DNA of 64,000 bases, from assembly GCF_988243305.1 (NCBI RefSeq), contig NZ_OZ547136.1, one strand, 5' to 3'. The notes beneath the pieces are model-generated. The model ran no database searches, had not been told where the DNA came from, and saw only the letters and a list, made by a program, of their open reading frames with translations. The position numbers were made by a program, and so were the translations under genes. Of the stretch, positions 53,760 to 61,417 are shown in pieces. Positions within the stretch are counted from its first letter, which is position 1; each line of letters opens with the position of its first letter.

Positions 53760-56700
53760 ATGAGCAAACAATCACAGCATGTATTAATTGCCCTGCCCCA
53801 CCCGCTGCTTCACCTGGTCAGTTTAGGTTTAGTCTCGTTTATCTTTACCCTTTTCTCGCTTGAGCTTTCGCAGTTTGGCACCCAACTCGCCCCACTGTGG
53901 TTCCCGACGTCCATCATGATGGTGGCGTTTTATCGCCATGCCGGGCGTATGTGGCCGGGGATTGCGCTGAGCTGCTCACTGGGAAATATCGCCGCATCCA
54001 TCCTGCTTTTTTCCACCAGCTCGCTGAACATGACCTGGACGACCATCAATATTGTTGAAGCCGTGGTCGGGGCAGTGCTACTGCGTAAATTGCTGCCGTG
54101 GTATAACCCATTGCAAAATCTGGCTGACTGGCTGCGTCTGGCACTCGGCAGCGCCATTGTTCCGCCTCTGTTGGGGGGTGTTCTGGTTATCCTGCTGACG
54201 CCCGGAGACGATCCTCTCAGGGCATTTTTGATATGGGTACTGTCAGAATCCATCGGCGCACTGGCACTGGTGCCACTGGGATTGTTATTTAAACCACACT
54301 ATCTGCTGCGCCATCGCAACCCAAGGTTGCTTTTTGAGTCGCTGCTCACGTTAGCCATCACACTGACGTTAAGCTGGCTTTCGATGCTGTATCTGCCGTG
54401 GCCTTTTACTTTCATTATTGTGCTGTTGATGTGGAGCGCCGTGCGCCTGCCACGAATGGAAGCCTTTTTGATCTTCCTTACCACGGTGATGATGGTGTCA
54501 CTGATGATGGCCGCGGATCCCTCCCTGCTTGCTACGCCGCGTACATACCTGATGAGCCATATGCCGTGGCTACCGTTTTTGCTGATCCTGCTGCCCGCCA
54601 ACATCATGACCATGGTGATGTATGCCTTTCGTGCGGAACGCAAACACATTTCCGAAAGCGAAACCCGCTTTCGGAACGCGATGGAATATTCCGCTATCGG
54701 TATGGCGTTAGTGGGCACCGAGGGACAATGGCTGCAATCCAACAAAGCACTCTGCCAGTTTCTCGGTTACAGTCAGGAAGAGCTGCGCGGACTCACCTTT
54801 CAGCAACTGACCTGGCCGGAGGATCTCAATAAAGATCTGCAACAGGTTGAAAAGCTGATCAGCGGTGAAATAAACACCTATTCAATGGAAAAACGCTACT
54901 ACAACCGCAATGGCGATGTTGTCTGGGCGTTGCTTGCCGTCTCACTGGTGCGCCACACGGATGGCACGCCGCTCTATTTTATCGCTCAGATTGAAGACAT
55001 TAACGAGCTAAAACGCACCGAACAGGTGAATCAGCAACTGATGGAGCGCATCACGCTGGCTAACGAAGCGGGCGGGATTGGCATCTGGGAGTGGGAGCTT
55101 AAGCCGAATATTTTTAGCTGGGATAAGCGGATGTTCGAGCTGTATGAAATTCCTCCGCATATCAAACCGAACTGGCAGGTGTGGTACGAGTGCGTGCTGC
55201 CGGAAGATCGCCAGCATGCCGAAAAAGTGATTCGTGATTCGTTGCAATCACGCTCTCCCTTTAAACTGGAATTTCGCATTACCGTGAAAGACGGCATTCG
55301 CCATATCCGCGCCCTCGCTAACCGGGTACTGAATAAAGAAGGCGAAGTCGAACGCCTGCTCGGCATTAATATGGATATGACCGAGGTAAAACAGCTTAAC
55401 GAGGCATTGTTTCAGGAAAAAGAGCGCCTGCACATTACGCTGGATTCCATCGGCGAAGCCGTGGTCTGTATTGATATGGCAATGAAAATTACCTTTATGA
55501 ATCCGGTGGCGGAGAAGATGAGCGGCTGGACGCAGGAAGAAGCGTTAGGTGTTCCACTCCTGACGGTGTTGCATATTACTTTTGGCGACAACGGACCATT
55601 AATGGAGAACATTTACAGTGCCGACACCTCACGTTCCGCGATTGAACAAGATGTGGTGTTGCACTGCCGAAGCGGCGGCAGCTACGACGTGCATTACAGT
55701 ATTACGCCGTTAAGTACTCTGGACGGCAGCAATATTGGTTCGGTTCTGGTGATTCAGGACGTCACCGAATCGCGCAAAATGCTGCGCCAGCTGAGCTACA
55801 GCGCCTCCCATGATGCACTGACGCATCTCGCCAATCGCGCCAGTTTTGAGAAGCAACTACGCATCCTGCTGCAAACGGTAAACAGTACACATCAGCGACA
55901 TGCACTGGTGTTTATCGATCTTGATCGCTTTAAAGCGGTGAATGACAGCGCCGGGCACGCCGCTGGCGACGCTTTACTGCGCGAACTGGCGTCATTGATG
56001 CTGAGTATGCTGCGCTCCAGCGACGTGCTGGCGCGACTCGGTGGCGATGAATTTGGTCTGCTGCTGCCAGATTGTAATGTCGAAAGTGCGCGTTTTATCG
56101 CTACACGCATTATCAGCGCCGTGAATGACTATCACTTTATCTGGGAAGGACGTGTACATCGGGTAGGTGCCAGTGCCGGGATTACCTTGATTGATGACAA
56201 CAATCATCAGGCGGCTGAAGTGATGTCGCAGGCTGATATCGCCTGTTATGCCTCCAAAAATGGTGGCCGGGGCCGGGTGACGATTTACGAACCGCAGCAA
56301 GCTGCCGCACATAGCGAACGGGCGGCGATGTCGCTTGATGAACAGTGGCGGATGATTAAAGAGAATCAGTTGATGATGATCGCCCACGGTGTCGCTTCGC
56401 CGCGGATCCCGCAAGCGCGTAATTTGTGGCTGATTTCACTTAAGCTCTGGAGTTGCGAAGGCGAGATTATTGATGAACAAACATTTCGTCGTAGCTTCAG
56501 CGATCCGGCACTTAGCCATGCTCTTGACCGACGGGTATTCCACGATTTTTTCCAGCAGGCCGCCAAAGCGGTTGCCAGTAAAGGTATAAGCATCGCCCTC
56601 CCGCTTTCCGTTGCCGGTTTGAGTAGCGCCACGCTGGTGAATGAACTAATTGAGCAGCTGGAAAATAGCCCTCTACCACCACGGTTATTACATCTGATTA

Positions 56701-57077
56701 TTCCGGCAGACGCGATTTTAGATCACGCAGAAAGCGTGCAAAAACTGCGGCTGGCGGGATGTCGGATCGTATTCAGTCAGGTGGGCCGCGATCTGCAAAT
56801 CTTCAACTCGCTGAAAGCGAATATGGCAGATTACCTGCTACTTGATGGTGAGTTATGCGCCAACGTGCAGGGAAATTTGATGGATGAGATGCTGATTACG
56901 ATCATTCAGGGGCACGCTCAGCGGCTCGGGATGAAGACCATCGCCGGGCCAGTAGTTTTACCCCTGGTGATGGATACGCTTTCTGGCATCGGCGTCGATC
57001 TGATTTATGGCGATGTGATTGCCGATGCCCAACCGCTGGATTTGCTGGTGAATAGCAGTTATTTCGCGATTAACTGA
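53760..57077 (+). CDS. dgcE: membrane-anchored diguanylate cyclase (sensory N-terminus, GGDEF domain, C-terminal EAL-like region)
   Basis: 1105 aa ORF; hydrophobic N-terminal third; GGDEF motif present (RLGGDEFGLLL); no canonical EAL motif seen in the C-terminal region. Confidence 0.88.
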   Translation: MSKQSQHVLIALPHPLLHLVSLGLVSFIFTLFSLELSQFGTQLAPLWFPTSIMMVAFYRHAGRMWPGIALSCSLGNIAASILLFSTSSLNMTWTTINIVEAVVGAVLLRKLLPWYNPLQNLADWLRLALGSAIVPPLLGGVLVILLTPGDDPLRAFLIWVLSESIGALALVPLGLLFKPHYLLRHRNPRLLFESLLTLAITLTLSWLSMLYLPWPFTFIIVLLMWSAVRLPRMEAFLIFLTTVMMVSLMMAADPSLLATPRTYLMSHMPWLPFLLILLPANIMTMVMYAFRAERKHISESETRFRNAMEYSAIGMALVGTEGQWLQSNKALCQFLGYSQEELRGLTFQQLTWPEDLNKDLQQVEKLISGEINTYSMEKRYYNRNGDVVWALLAVSLVRHTDGTPLYFIAQIEDINELKRTEQVNQQLMERITLANEAGGIGIWEWELKPNIFSWDKRMFELYEIPPHIKPNWQVWYECVLPEDRQHAEKVIRDSLQSRSPFKLEFRITVKDGIRHIRALANRVLNKEGEVERLLGINMDMTEVKQLNEALFQEKERLHITLDSIGEAVVCIDMAMKITFMNPVAEKMSGWTQEEALGVPLLTVLHITFGDNGPLMENIYSADTSRSAIEQDVVLHCRSGGSYDVHYSITPLSTLDGSNIGSVLVIQDVTESRKMLRQLSYSASHDALTHLANRASFEKQLRILLQTVNSTHQRHALVFIDLDRFKAVNDSAGHAAGDALLRELASLMLSMLRSSDVLARLGGDEFGLLLPDCNVESARFIATRIISAVNDYHFIWEGRVHRVGASAGITLIDDNNHQAAEVMSQADIACYASKNGGRGRVTIYEPQQAAAHSERAAMSLDEQWRMIKENQLMMIAHGVASPRIPQARNLWLISLKLWSCEGEIIDEQTFRRSFSDPALSHALDRRVFHDFFQQAAKAVASKGISIALPLSVAGLSSATLVNELIEQLENSPLPPRLLHLIIPADAILDHAESVQKLRLAGCRIVFSQVGRDLQIFNSLKANMADYLLLDGELCANVQGNLMDEMLITIIQGHAQRLGMKTIAGPVVLPLVMDTLSGIGVDLIYGDVIADAQPLDLLVNSSYFAIN

Positions 57078-57093: not shown

Positions 57094-57117
57094 GCCTGAT
57101 GCGGCGTATCAGGCCTA
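57094..57117. repeat. REP element overlapping the alkA stop codon
   Basis: gcctgatgcggcgtatcaggcctac palindrome. Confidence 0.75.
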
Positions 57118-57972
57118 CAATTCGTCCGTTCCGTCTGGTTGCCAGCCTTCCGTATACCAGATATGCAACAGCGCATAAGAACGCCAGGGCTTCCAGCGTT
57201 CGGCATAACGGCGGATTTGTGCCGGTGTCATTCCCGGAAATCGCTGTTTAATCAGATAATCATCCGGCAGGAAAACATCTTTCGCCTGCCAGCCACGTAA
57301 GGCGAAATAATTCGCCGTCCAGCGCCCGATACCCGGAAAAGTTTGCAGCGTTTTCATCGCTTGCTCTACGTCGCCCGGAAATGTCATTGGTAAGGTGCCC
57401 TCCAGCGCCGCATTTGCCAGATGAATCAGTGCCTCTGCCCGTTTCAACGGCATACCTAACGCTTTTAATGCCTGCGGGTCGGCTGCAGCCAGCCGCTGAG
57501 GCGTGGGGAAGCAGACATAATCCGGAAAATCATCCAGCCGTTCGCCATAAAGCTGTGCCACTCTGGCGGTCAATTTTGCCGCCATCGCCACGCTCACCAG
57601 TTGGCCTAAAATCGCCCGCACGCCCTGCTCAAAAGCATCAACACTGCCGGGTAAACGCAATCCGGGCCGCGCCGCGCCTAACTTGCCCAACGCACCGTTA
57701 ACAATCTGCGGGTTACATTGCAGATCAAACAGGCGGCTCATTTTCGCCAGACACTCTGCGGCAACAGGTTCTAAACCTGCACTTAAATTTATGTGCAGAG
57801 TATGGCGGGCTATATCCGGAATAGCAGTCACCACGCCGCGATATTCGCCCACCGCCAGACTACGGGCATAATAATCGTCAGCGACCGTTTCCACACCGTT
57901 CACCGCACGGGCGGCGAGAAATCCCAACATCCACGACCAGTCATACGGCGGCTGCCAGTTCAGGGTATACAT
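57115..57972 (-). CDS. alkA: 3-methyladenine DNA glycosylase II
   Basis: 285 aa ORF starting MYTLNWQPPYDW. Confidence 0.92.
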   Translation of the reverse strand: MYTLNWQPPYDWSWMLGFLAARAVNGVETVADDYYARSLAVGEYRGVVTAIPDIARHTLHINLSAGLEPVAAECLAKMSRLFDLQCNPQIVNGALGKLGAARPGLRLPGSVDAFEQGVRAILGQLVSVAMAAKLTARVAQLYGERLDDFPDYVCFPTPQRLAAADPQALKALGMPLKRAEALIHLANAALEGTLPMTFPGDVEQAMKTLQTFPGIGRWTANYFALRGWQAKDVFLPDDYLIKQRFPGMTPAQIRRYAERWKPWRSYALLHIWYTEGWQPDGTDEL

Positions 57973-58024
57973 CGCATCTCCTTGTTAATCCGCTTTCAGC
58001 ATAAACGTTATTCAGACGTTACGC

Positions 58025-58032
58025 TTTGCTTT
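58025..58032 (-). promoter_or_regulatory. candidate Ada box in alkA promoter
   Basis: plus-strand tttgcttt is AAAGCAAA on the alkA strand, about 55 bp upstream of the alkA start; matches my recollection of the Ada recognition sequence. Confidence 0.45.
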
Positions 58033-58105
58033 CATATTCCGGTTGTCGCGACGGCAACATTTCGCTAAAGTCACGCCCCTTCTTCACCGGCATGGGGATT
58101 ATTTC

Positions 58106-59458
58106 GTGTTTATTGGTTTTGATTACGGTACAGCAAACTGTTCAGTGGCGGTCATGCGCGACGGTAAACCGCATTTGCTAAAAATGGAAAACGACAGCAC
58201 GCTGCTGCCTTCAATGCTTTGCGCGCCAACGCGTGAAGCGGTAAGCGAATGGCTGTACCGCCATCATGATGTTCCGGCAGACGACGATGAAACGCAGGCG
58301 CTGCTGCGTCGGGCGATTCGTTATAACCGCGAAGAAGATATCGATGTTACGGCGAAAAGCGTGCAGTTCGGTCTTTCCTCACTGGCACAGTACATTGATG
58401 ATCCAGAAGAAGTGTGGTTTGTGAAATCACCAAAATCGTTCCTCGGTGCCAGCGGCTTAAAACCGCAGCAGGTAGCGCTGTTTGAGGATCTGGTCTGCGC
58501 AATGATGTTGCACATTCGCCAGCAGGCGCAGGCACAGCTGCCAGAAGCGATTACTCAGGCGGTGATTGGTCGCCCTATCAACTTCCAGGGGCTGGGCGGC
58601 GATGAAGCAAACACCCAGGCGCAGGGGATTCTGGAACGCGCGGCGAAGCGTGCCGGGTTTAAGGATGTGGTATTCCAGTACGAGCCGGTCGCGGCTGGGC
58701 TGGATTACGAAGCCACCTTGCAGGAAGAAAAACGGGTGCTGGTGGTGGATATCGGCGGTGGTACGACTGACTGTTCATTGCTGCTGATGGGGCCGCAGTG
58801 GCGTTCGCGTCTCGATCGTGAAGCCAGCCTGCTGGGTCACAGTGGTTGCCGTATTGGCGGTAACGATCTGGATATCGCACTGGCGTTTAAAAACCTGATG
58901 CCGTTACTGGGCATGGGTGGCGAAACCGAAAAAGGCATCGCCCTGCCGATTCTGCCGTGGTGGAATGCGGTTGCCATCAACGACGTACCTGCGCAAAGTG
59001 ATTTCTACAGTAGTGCCAACGGTCGTCTGCTTAACGATCTGGTACGCGATGCCCGCGAACCGGAAAAAGTGGCCCTGTTACAGAAAGTCTGGCGTCAGCG
59101 TTTAAGCTATCGCCTGGTACGTAGCGCAGAAGAGAGCAAAATTGCGCTTTCAAGCGTAGCGGAAACCCGCGCCTCACTGCCGTTTATCAGCGATGAACTG
59201 GCTACGCTGATTAGCCAGCAAGGGCTGGAAAGCGCCCTCAACCAGCCACTGATGCGGATTCTGGAACAGGTGCAACTGGCGCTGGATAACGCCCAGGAAA
59301 AACCGGATGTCATCTACCTGACCGGCGGTAGCGCCCGTTCGCCGCTGATTAAAAAAGCGCTGGCAGAACAGTTGCCGGGCATTCCGATTGCAGGCGGCGA
59401 TGACTTTGGCTCCGTCACCGCCGGGCTGGCACGCTGGGCGGAGGTGGTGTTTCGTTAA
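58106..59458 (+). CDS. yegD: Hsp70/actin-fold ATPase family protein
   Basis: ORF 58043-59458 begins at TTG; likely true start is GTG at 58106 (MFIGFDYGTANCSVAV), giving 450 aa; DYGT and DIGGGTTD motifs. Confidence 0.85.
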   Translation: MFIGFDYGTANCSVAVMRDGKPHLLKMENDSTLLPSMLCAPTREAVSEWLYRHHDVPADDDETQALLRRAIRYNREEDIDVTAKSVQFGLSSLAQYIDDPEEVWFVKSPKSFLGASGLKPQQVALFEDLVCAMMLHIRQQAQAQLPEAITQAVIGRPINFQGLGGDEANTQAQGILERAAKRAGFKDVVFQYEPVAAGLDYEATLQEEKRVLVVDIGGGTTDCSLLLMGPQWRSRLDREASLLGHSGCRIGGNDLDIALAFKNLMPLLGMGGETEKGIALPILPWWNAVAINDVPAQSDFYSSANGRLLNDLVRDAREPEKVALLQKVWRQRLSYRLVRSAEESKIALSSVAETRASLPFISDELATLISQQGLESALNQPLMRILEQVQLALDNAQEKPDVIYLTGGSARSPLIKKALAEQLPGIPIAGGDDFGSVTAGLARWAEVVFR

Positions 59459-59470
59459 TTGAAAACTGGC

Positions 59471-61417
59471 TCAGCAACGGCTTAAATCAGCCTGCGCCTG
59501 AGCCAGTTTTTCTGCCGCCTGACGTAACGGTTCCATCAACGGCATGGTCCGTGCTGGAGCATGAAGGCGGAATCGCTGCAACTCTGTCGCACCGACAGTC
59601 AGCGCCGATTCCAGCCGATGTCGTTTGGCGGCCATTTTTGCCATTACCGCTTGTCTGTCTGCAGGCGTTACCGCTTCGTTCGGCCTGAAAACAAAACGGC
59701 GTTCGCAACTCGCTTTCCAGTCGATAACCGCCTGGGTCAGATGATCACCAAAACCTTTTACTTGCTTAACGCTCCGTCGGGTAACGTCTGCCGCCGTTTC
59801 AATACCAAAGGACCGTAACGCCGCTTTACGCGCAGGGCCAACGCCGGGAATAGAGGCAACATCAATAAAAAATCCCTCCAGAAACTTCTGCTTCTGCCGT
59901 TCCCTTGCGGTGTCCTGAAGTGCTGCCAGATCGCGCTTTTCTTCTTCCGGTAACCCAAGAATTTCGTCCTTCATTTTTTCGAGCATCGTCCGTTTGGCGA
60001 TAAAACCTTCCAGCCCGCCCAACCGTTGGATCTGGCTGACTAAATGGTCATAGTCCATTTTCGCGCGATTAAACGCCTCACGGCGTTGCTGGATTTCTGC
60101 TTTGTACGCTTTGCTTGTCAGGCTGCCAATAATCCAGATAGCCGCCAGCACAGGAACCAAAATAATATAACGCGGTTCTGCCTGAAGGCCGCAAAGCAAC
60201 AGCGATAACGCTGACAGTGCGATCTCAATCAGAATGATGTATTCGCGCCGTAACAGGCCTAAAGGAAGCGGCCTGCCAGTCAGTTGGAAATGATCGGGTA
60301 ATGGCAGTTGCAATGCTGGCGGTGCTACTGACGCCATCACCATCGCCCAGACTTTCGCCAGCACAAAATCACCGCTGGTGGTAATGACCTCTTCGCCGAG
60401 ATCAATAAAATAGATAACGCCTTGATTATCCAGCGCACACCACGGGCAGTCAGTCAAATGACCGGGGTAAACATGCATTGCCGAAACGGTACATTTCTTT
60501 AACTGTTGGCGTAGTAAATCAAGTGCCGCAACCCACGCTTTTGCCGTCGGACGCCCGGTTGCCACGCCACTTTCCGTGAATGCCTGCTGAAACATGGTTT
60601 CAACATCGCCCGGTAACATCGACAGCGGAATAGATCGTGGCGGCGGTTTTAAACCACGTCGCTGATTATCTGACGCGTAGGCATAACGGAAATGGGCAAT
60701 ATCCGTCTCCAGTGCATTACCCGCATCAGAGACAAGCGGTACACCGGAATAAGGATGCCGCCCACCAAACAAGACGTGAAAAATCAGCAACGCAAGGCCA
60801 AAATTATCGTGATTCGCGGTGCGTTCAAAGCCGACAAATGATGGCAAGGTTTGCAGCTCTGGCGGCGTAAAATGCGACACGCCGACTTCGCATAAATGCA
60901 GCGTGCCATTGGCGTTAATCTGAAAGGAGTCGCTATCAATCAACACCACTTTGCTGTCACGGCCTACCATAAAGCTGTTCTGGTTTACGTCACCCACGAC
61001 ATGCCCGTGCTCGTGAACCGTAGCAAAAGATGAAGCAATATTGCGCGCAACATAGAGTAGAAAATCCCACGCACAATGAGGGTAACGTTGGCGACGATGT
61101 GCCGGGCTATAGATCATATGAATCGGTTCTTTACCAGAAACTTTTGGCATCATAAAACCGATAACCTTTCCGCCTCGTCCACCGTGAAGCGTTGCCTGCG
61201 GCCAGGCGACATAATTCAACAATTGCGCGTCAGCTGTCGCAGCCATAAAGGCAAGTTTGTCCTGTTTTAAGGCGGGTGGCGGCGTGTGATAAATCTTGGC
61301 GACACTATCGACAAACTCCTCGATATCATAAACCGCGCCTTCGCCACCTTTTCCCAGTTCACGCCCGAGAGTGGTCAATTCACCTGTCGATGTAAATACT
61401 TTTATATTTGTCTTCAT
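59471..61417 (-). CDS. yegI: eukaryotic-like Ser/Thr protein kinase family membrane protein
   Basis: 648 aa ORF; N-terminal glycine-rich loop LGKGGEGAVY followed by VAKIY lysine motif; central hydrophobic segments; C-terminal extension. Confidence 0.85.
   Translation of the reverse strand: MKTNIKVFTSTGELTTLGRELGKGGEGAVYDIEEFVDSVAKIYHTPPPALKQDKLAFMAATADAQLLNYVAWPQATLHGGRGGKVIGFMMPKVSGKEPIHMIYSPAHRRQRYPHCAWDFLLYVARNIASSFATVHEHGHVVGDVNQNSFMVGRDSKVVLIDSDSFQINANGTLHLCEVGVSHFTPPELQTLPSFVGFERTANHDNFGLALLIFHVLFGGRHPYSGVPLVSDAGNALETDIAHFRYAYASDNQRRGLKPPPRSIPLSMLPGDVETMFQQAFTESGVATGRPTAKAWVAALDLLRQQLKKCTVSAMHVYPGHLTDCPWCALDNQGVIYFIDLGEEVITTSGDFVLAKVWAMVMASVAPPALQLPLPDHFQLTGRPLPLGLLRREYIILIEIALSALSLLLCGLQAEPRYIILVPVLAAIWIIGSLTSKAYKAEIQQRREAFNRAKMDYDHLVSQIQRLGGLEGFIAKRTMLEKMKDEILGLPEEEKRDLAALQDTARERQKQKFLEGFFIDVASIPGVGPARKAALRSFGIETAADVTRRSVKQVKGFGDHLTQAVIDWKASCERRFVFRPNEAVTPADRQAVMAKMAAKRHRLESALTVGATELQRFRLHAPARTMPLMEPLRQAAEKLAQAQADLSRC

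Follow-up and report, generated by a model that had tools for sequence, protein, structure and literature searches.

The ada, alkA, and aidB promoters of Escherichia coli each carry an A box (AAT), which Ada reads with its residues R45 and R71, and a B box (GCAA), for which it uses F114, H115, and R118; these boxes are located at different distances from the transcription start sites of the three promoters (PMC4437013). In the alkA and aidB promoters the base on the 5' side of the B box is an A, and their affinity for Ada is approximately 10-fold lower than that of the ada promoter (PMC4437013). Published A box/B box sites include AATATGAAAGCAA, at 53 nt from alkA, and, in the case of ada, AATTAAAGCGCAA at a distance of 66 nt (Table 7 of PMC6505713). 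AAAGCAA has been described as the alkA sequence interacting with Ada, and alkA expression rises approximately 10-fold upon Ada activation (PMC3788762). For the K-12 sequence, which is identical to the one described here, both the binding of Ada and its Ada-dependent induction by methylating agents are established (PMC4437013, PMC3788762, PMC6505713). The Ada operator of alkA is already well characterized in E. coli, and there is nothing new in its identification.

An earlier note, made from the letters of the sequence, flagged an 8-mer between alkA and yegD as a candidate Ada box. Its author correctly located a classic activator site, which adds little new biology. Here, we compare this site with the described Ada-dependent promoters, define its limits and its position within the two divergent promoters, and weigh the alternative explanations for its conservation.

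The alkA-yegD locus

The window, which is the whole stretch of 64,000 nucleotides that was analyzed, shares 100% identity with E. coli ST2747 in the 401 bases compared around the motif, and the RefSeq annotation of ST2747 was mapped onto it. The two divergent genes and the ribosome-binding site of alkA are the following:

57115-57972, minus strand: alkA coding sequence, 285 amino acids, DNA-3-methyladenine glycosylase 2 (open reading frame and RefSeq annotation)
57978-57983, minus strand: AAGGAG, Shine-Dalgarno sequence of alkA, read from the sequence
58106-59458, plus strand: yegD coding sequence, 450 amino acids, GTG start, Hsp70-family protein (RefSeq)

AlkA scores 598 bits against the NCBIfam equivalog NF007641, the cut-off of which is 229, and the A of its ATG lies at 57972 according to both the open reading frame in the window and RefSeq. 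The alignment shows that a GGAG or GGA core of its Shine-Dalgarno sequence is retained across genera. The protein has 285 amino acids in the window and in several other E. coli strains (coding sequence of 858 nt), and 282 amino acids in K-12 and one swine isolate (849 nt), with the difference in length located at the C-terminus.

The reading of GTG as the start codon of yegD has held up. From this codon, at 58106 in RefSeq, YegD scores 810 bits and aligns over positions 1-450 of 450 to the NCBIfam equivalog NF008673, and the only alternative in-frame start among the open reading frames of the window is a TTG at 58043. The DNA just upstream of the GTG shows 1-nt insertions and deletions between genera, so that stretch is not coding, and GTG 58106 is supported as the start on these sequence grounds. 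The intergenic gap thus delimited runs from 57973 to 58105 and measures 133 bp, the length given in the earlier note.

Regarding the neighboring genes, the dgcE open reading frame (53760-57077, plus strand) is uninterrupted in the window and encodes 1105 amino acids, the length found in K-12. RefSeq marks the dgcE of ST2747 as an incomplete pseudogene lacking its N-terminus, a label that is probably an annotation artefact. On the other side, yegI, encoding a putative Ser/Thr protein kinase of 648 amino acids (59471-61417, minus strand), converges on yegD across a 12-bp gap.

The Ada site

The operator definition applied is the A box/B box site of He et al. (2005), as quoted in PMC4437013 and PMC6505713, with AAT-N6-GCAA carried by the same strand as the gene under its control. 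The elements recognized in the gap are:

58025-58032, minus strand: the flagged 8-mer, AAAGCAAA, in which the B box is preceded by three bases of the spacer and followed, at the 3' end, by a base that is not conserved (58025)
58026-58038, minus strand: Ada-binding site AATATGAAAGCAA (AAT-N6-GCAA), a pattern match identical to the K-12 alkA site
58036-58038, minus strand: A box AAT, part of AATATGAAAGCAA
58030-58035, minus strand: 6-nt spacer of the Ada site, part of AATATGAAAGCAA
58026-58029, minus strand: B box GCAA, part of AATATGAAAGCAA

The plus strand reads TTTGCTTT at 58025-58032, so it is the minus strand, that of alkA, which carries AAAGCAAA, 53-60 nt upstream of the alkA ATG; both the strand and the distance of about 55 bp proposed for the motif are in accordance with this reading. 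The full pattern AAT-N6-GCAA is present on the same strand as AATATGAAAGCAA. As for its spacing, an AlkA equivalog lies downstream, the distance from the box to the ATG is 53 nt as in K-12, and a fixed 22 nt separate GCAA from the hexamer TATGCT, considered below. The alignment with the characterized alkA promoter that had been suggested as a check returned the 13-mer and the 53-nt distance unchanged from K-12. The base on the 5' side of the B box is an A, as in the lower-affinity class formed by alkA and aidB.

Given this match in sequence and position, the 8-mer is almost certainly the core of the known Ada operator of the alkA promoter. The limits proposed for it do not stand to the same extent as its identity. 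Because the A box, which is conserved, falls outside 58025-58032, and base 58025 itself varies, the functional unit is the AAT-N6-GCAA at 58026-58038 rather than the 8-mer.

Conservation and chance

The Ada box and its flanks, searched for as a 31-mer comprising the box and the upstream flank, are present in 5400 of the 5426 complete E. coli genomes, 5411 of which carry the alkA locus. For the comparison between genera, a degenerate pattern of the AlkA N-terminus retrieved 20 loci, and 18 of them together with the window gave 19 sequences with divergent alkA and yegD, belonging to Escherichia, Citrobacter, Salmonella, Enterobacter cloacae, and Intestinirhabdus. Of these 19, only Intestinirhabdus departs from the 13-mer AATATGAAAGCAA, with AATATAAAAGCAG in its place; the other 18 have it unaltered. 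Taken by columns, 11 of the 13 positions of the site are invariant across the 19 sequences and five genera, and the other two vary in Intestinirhabdus only.

The invariant columns form three blocks, GGAATAT (58034-58040), AAAGCA (58027-58032), and TATGCTG (57997-58003). At base 58025, A and G are about equally frequent in the alignment, and the 21 nt from the box to TATGCT vary freely in sequence while their length is kept. The contrast between 11 invariant columns out of 13 in the site and 50% over the whole gap points to purifying selection on the Ada site. An invariant box and an invariant putative -10, joined by a variable spacer of fixed length, is what one would expect if an activator site were held at a fixed distance from the -10.

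A motif as short as this one might occur by chance and have no function of its own, and the frequencies in the window would be compatible with such an explanation: AAAGCAAA occurs four times where 4.9 copies are expected, and AAT-N6-GCAA ten times where 19.5 are expected. The A/B-box pattern was also found equally frequent upstream of regulated and unregulated genes in a tiling-array study (PMC6505713). By itself, the Ada motif is frequently found in genomes and is no predictor of regulation, and the rarity of the motif was rejected as evidence given that the window holds no excess of either the 8-mer or the 13-nt pattern; therefore, the case rests on position, identity to K-12, and conservation. 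Even though frequency does not speak against chance, these other lines do. The sequence and its spacing are identical to those of the characterized K-12 site, the 13-mer is unchanged in four genera in which the adjacent non-coding DNA is variable, and the site is invariant in 5400 of the 5426 E. coli genomes, which leaves a fortuitous occurrence extremely improbable. From the window counts, the chance of finding one AAAGCAAA on the alkA strand of the 133-bp gap is estimated at about 0.005.

Two loci, from Enterobacter sp. Bisph1 and from Enterobacteriaceae UBA5654, have alkA without the yegD-type upstream region. Upstream of the first, GCAA and TATGCT are found at nearly the same spacing, with GAT replacing the A box, and upstream of the second there is no recognizable Ada site. 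Judging from these two cases, alkA may not be under Ada control throughout the family.

Presumed geometry of the alkA promoter

The position of the site within the promoter depends on two further elements:

57998-58003, minus strand: TATGCT, putative -10 hexamer of alkA, with four of six matches to TATAAT, A2 and T6 being kept
57991, minus strand: G, presumed transcription start of alkA, 19 nt upstream of the ATG, placed from the position of the -10 only

TATGCTG is invariant in all 19 alkA-yegD sequences and is also present in Enterobacter sp. Bisph1, which has no yegD upstream, and TATGCT stays at its 22-nt distance from GCAA across variable intervening DNA. From this pattern, we infer that TATGCT is the -10 of alkA. 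When TATGCT is taken as -12 to -7, the Ada site would occupy about -47 to -35, abutting or overlapping the -35 region, with the 8-mer at -41 to -34. A transcription start placing the motif outside -35 to -60 had been named as the result that would speak against an Ada box; with the start presumed here, the site would fall at the promoter-proximal edge of that interval, overlapping the -35 region. The hexamer at the presumed -35 to -30, AAGCGT, has a single match to TTGACA, which fits a promoter that is bound very weakly by the polymerase without Ada (PMC4437013).

The alkA start site was not found in the Cappable-seq supplementary tables examined, an absence to be expected for uninduced cells. 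A scan for consensus sigma70 promoters and terminators between 57900 and 58200 returned nothing at threshold, the alkA and yegD promoters having fewer than 9 of 12 matches; the lack of a consensus sigma70 match is what would be expected of an activator-dependent promoter and is not positive evidence. Furuichi et al. reportedly placed AAAGCAAA at -41 to -34 in 1992, in agreement with the position proposed here, and the title of a 1999 paper by Landini and Busby states that Ada contacts different determinants of sigma70 according to promoter architecture, which also agrees with this geometry.

Alleles beside the box and a small open reading frame

Immediately 3' of the box, the window departs from K-12 at two positions:

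58019 (presumed -28) and 58021 (presumed -30), minus strand: polymorphic positions, GCGTAA in the window and GCGCAG in K-12 (alignments)

Across the 5426 E. coli genomes, the alleles at these positions are GCGTAG in 2812, GCGCAG, the K-12 allele, in 1518, and GCGTAA, that of the window, in 990, and both positions vary in other genera too. They bear on the older 13-nt consensus for the Ada box, AAANNAAAGCGCA, which K-12 matches perfectly and which the window, with AAAGCAAAGCGTA, matches at 12 of 13 bases. The "perfect" old-style box of K-12 is thus carried by a minority of the E. coli genomes, 28%. As only the K-12 allele matches AAANNAAAGCGCA perfectly and other genera vary, the old-style match at alkA is not under selection, and the 12/13 match leaves the membership of the site in the A/B-box class unaffected. 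When AAT-N6-GCAA is set against the 8-mer and the older 13-nt consensus as a definition of the Ada site, it is AAT-N6-GCAA that the comparative data support. E. coli lineages could differ in alkA inducibility because of the three natural alleles at -30/-28.

The substitution at -28 also affects an open reading frame of 24 amino acids, MPVKKGRDFSEMLPSRQPEYESKA, which crosses the Ada box on the minus strand from 58093 down to 58019, ATG to TAA. The conservation of the region might then reflect a small coding sequence on the alkA strand, beginning with MPVKKGRDFSEM, and this explanation would account for the uninterrupted frame from ATG to TAA in the window and for the fact that, within its first 12 codons, several of the substitutions seen between genera affect the third base. 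However, its length is not conserved, with 24 amino acids in the window and 39 in K-12 by our own reading of the alignment, because the -28 polymorphism creates the stop codon of the window. In addition, E. cloacae has a 1-nt deletion inside the frame, the C-terminal half is not conserved, and no Shine-Dalgarno sequence precedes the ATG. On these four grounds, a small coding sequence through the box was rejected, and we consider it hardly credible as the source of the conservation.

The yegD side of the gap

The suggestion that the same gap must also drive yegD was borne out by a transcription start previously mapped in K-12. SMRT-Cappable-seq reported a monocistronic yegD transcript (b2069) starting at NC_000913.3:2147647 on the forward strand (PMC6131387 Supplementary Data 2), and the corresponding position lies inside the gap:

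58043-58048, plus strand: TTGTCG, -35 hexamer of yegD, followed by TAAAGT after 17 bp; the opposite strand carries GACAAC, without variation between genera
58066-58071, plus strand: TAAAGT, -10 hexamer of yegD, whose end precedes the mapped start by 8 nt; the opposite strand carries an invariant GACTTTA
58079, plus strand: transcription start of yegD, transferred from K-12 through the gap-free alignment, leaving a 27-nt leader

The arrangement of TTGTCG, 17 bp, and TAAAGT fits the start transferred to 58079. The presumed alkA start and the yegD start are 88 bp apart, with the two core promoters back to back, and of the 16 bp separating their -35 regions the Ada site takes up 13. Relative to the yegD start, the site spans -53 to -41, which leaves 4 bp to the -35 hexamer of yegD.

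This position raises the question of whether the conserved element mainly serves yegD, as an activator or UP-like site near -47 of its start, with the regulation of alkA being secondary. Its location relative to the mapped start, its closeness to a conserved -35 hexamer, and the high conservation of the whole yegD-proximal half of the gap would all be in line with such a role. However, the literature assigns the sequence to the Ada-dependent activation of alkA (PMC4437013, PMC3788762, PMC6505713), and the alkA of Enterobacter sp. Bisph1, with no yegD upstream, still keeps the arrangement from GCAA to TATGCT. Moreover, yegD is not named as alkylation-responsive in the main texts of two transcriptome studies, one of them PMC6505713, or in the parts of the supplements that were covered. 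A primary role in yegD expression is consequently very improbable, and the site is best regarded as the Ada operator of alkA.

A weaker proposal, in which that operator has consequences beyond alkA, deserves mention. As the site would be near -47 of yegD, and the alpha subunit of the polymerase recruited to alkA would lie over the yegD -35, alkylation stress could couple the expression of AlkA and YegD or make them compete. That Ada bound at 58026-58038 also acts on the yegD promoter, that the -30/-28 alleles set the inducibility of alkA, or both, seems to us unlikely. If true, alkylation stress may couple, or set in competition, the expression of AlkA and that of the Hsp70-like YegD, and the back-to-back geometry of the two promoters allows a simple test of such cross-talk.

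The yegD promoter and its 27-nt leader (58042-58098, plus strand) are almost invariant in five genera and surpass the adjoining yegD coding sequence in conservation; the conserved leader is CUUCUUCACCGGCAUGGGGAU. The translation of yegD has been reported to be activated by RyhB (PMC4666370). The pairing of RyhB with the leader was considered and rejected, the predicted duplexes being no better than those of shuffled or random genomic controls. A search of the leader against Rfam gave no family match, and its predicted fold was no better than that of shuffled sequence (z = +0.7).

Proposed mechanism

According to the literature, methylating agents give rise to methylphosphotriesters in DNA, which Ada repairs by moving one such methyl group to Cys38 in its own N-terminal region. 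The methylation of Cys38 removes negative charge, upon which the N-terminal domain is able to read the A and B boxes and to bind them in a sequence-specific manner. At alkA, the Ada site appears to end where the -35 hexamer should begin, with no usable -35 hexamer present. With the box at the edge of the -35 and no such hexamer, bound Ada would substitute for -35 recognition, recruiting the RNA polymerase via sigma70 and the C-terminal domain of the alpha subunit. The resulting increase in alkA transcription would provide the cell with more 3-methyladenine glycosylase II.

The regulator needed for this mechanism is encoded in the same genome: the ada-alkB operon of ST2747 is annotated at 3098917-3100631, and AATTAAAGCGCAA is intact upstream of its ada gene. 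The ada promoter and the 5' end of the gene are present in 5421 of the 5426 E. coli genomes. By analogy with K-12, we infer that Ada binds the alkA site and induces the gene in ST2747.

Comparison with known Ada-dependent promoters

The closest system is the alkA promoter of K-12 itself. A gap-free alignment with MG1655 over 161 nt spanning the intergenic region contains four differences, none of them within the 13-mer or the 48 nt upstream of it. The two loci share the 13 bases of the Ada site, these 48 nt, the -10, the 53 nt to the ATG, the strand, and the divergent yegD. They differ in the change from GCGCAG to GCGTAA in the window, that is, the two substitutions just 3' of the box at the presumed -30 and -28, and in two further substitutions in the 5' leader.

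The boxes of the other two E. coli promoters, AATTAAAGCGCAA for ada and AATGTTTTAGCAA for aidB, were re-derived from the K-12 sequence. The ada-alkB box has the same AAT-N6-GCAA, responds to the same regulator, and belongs to the same genome as the alkA site. However, it carries a C before the B box, for which an affinity for Ada approximately 10-fold greater than that conferred by the A of alkA has been reported (PMC4437013). It is also located at 66 nt from the start codon, in comparison to 53 nt in alkA, and would therefore lie upstream of the -35 region, which the alkA box would overlap. Furthermore, methylated Ada is required for the RNA polymerase to bind the ada promoter, whereas alkA is stimulated by both forms of Ada (PMC4437013).

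The aidB site shares with alkA both the AAT-N6-GCAA pattern and the A before the B box, but is located upstream of the -35 region, like that of the ada promoter. The effect of sigmaS on the two genes is the opposite: the strong induction of aidB by methylated Ada is dependent on sigmaS, whereas the transcription of alkA is stronger without it (PMC4437013).

The alkA-ada promoter of Pseudomonas putida, with ATT-N6-GCAA, is likewise Ada-dependent and inducible by methylation, and its B box is essential (PMC3788762). Contrary to the site described here, its A box is ATT, its distance to the -35 and -10 is similar to the one in E. coli ada rather than to that of alkA, and it is not activated by the Ada protein of E. 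coli (PMC3788762).
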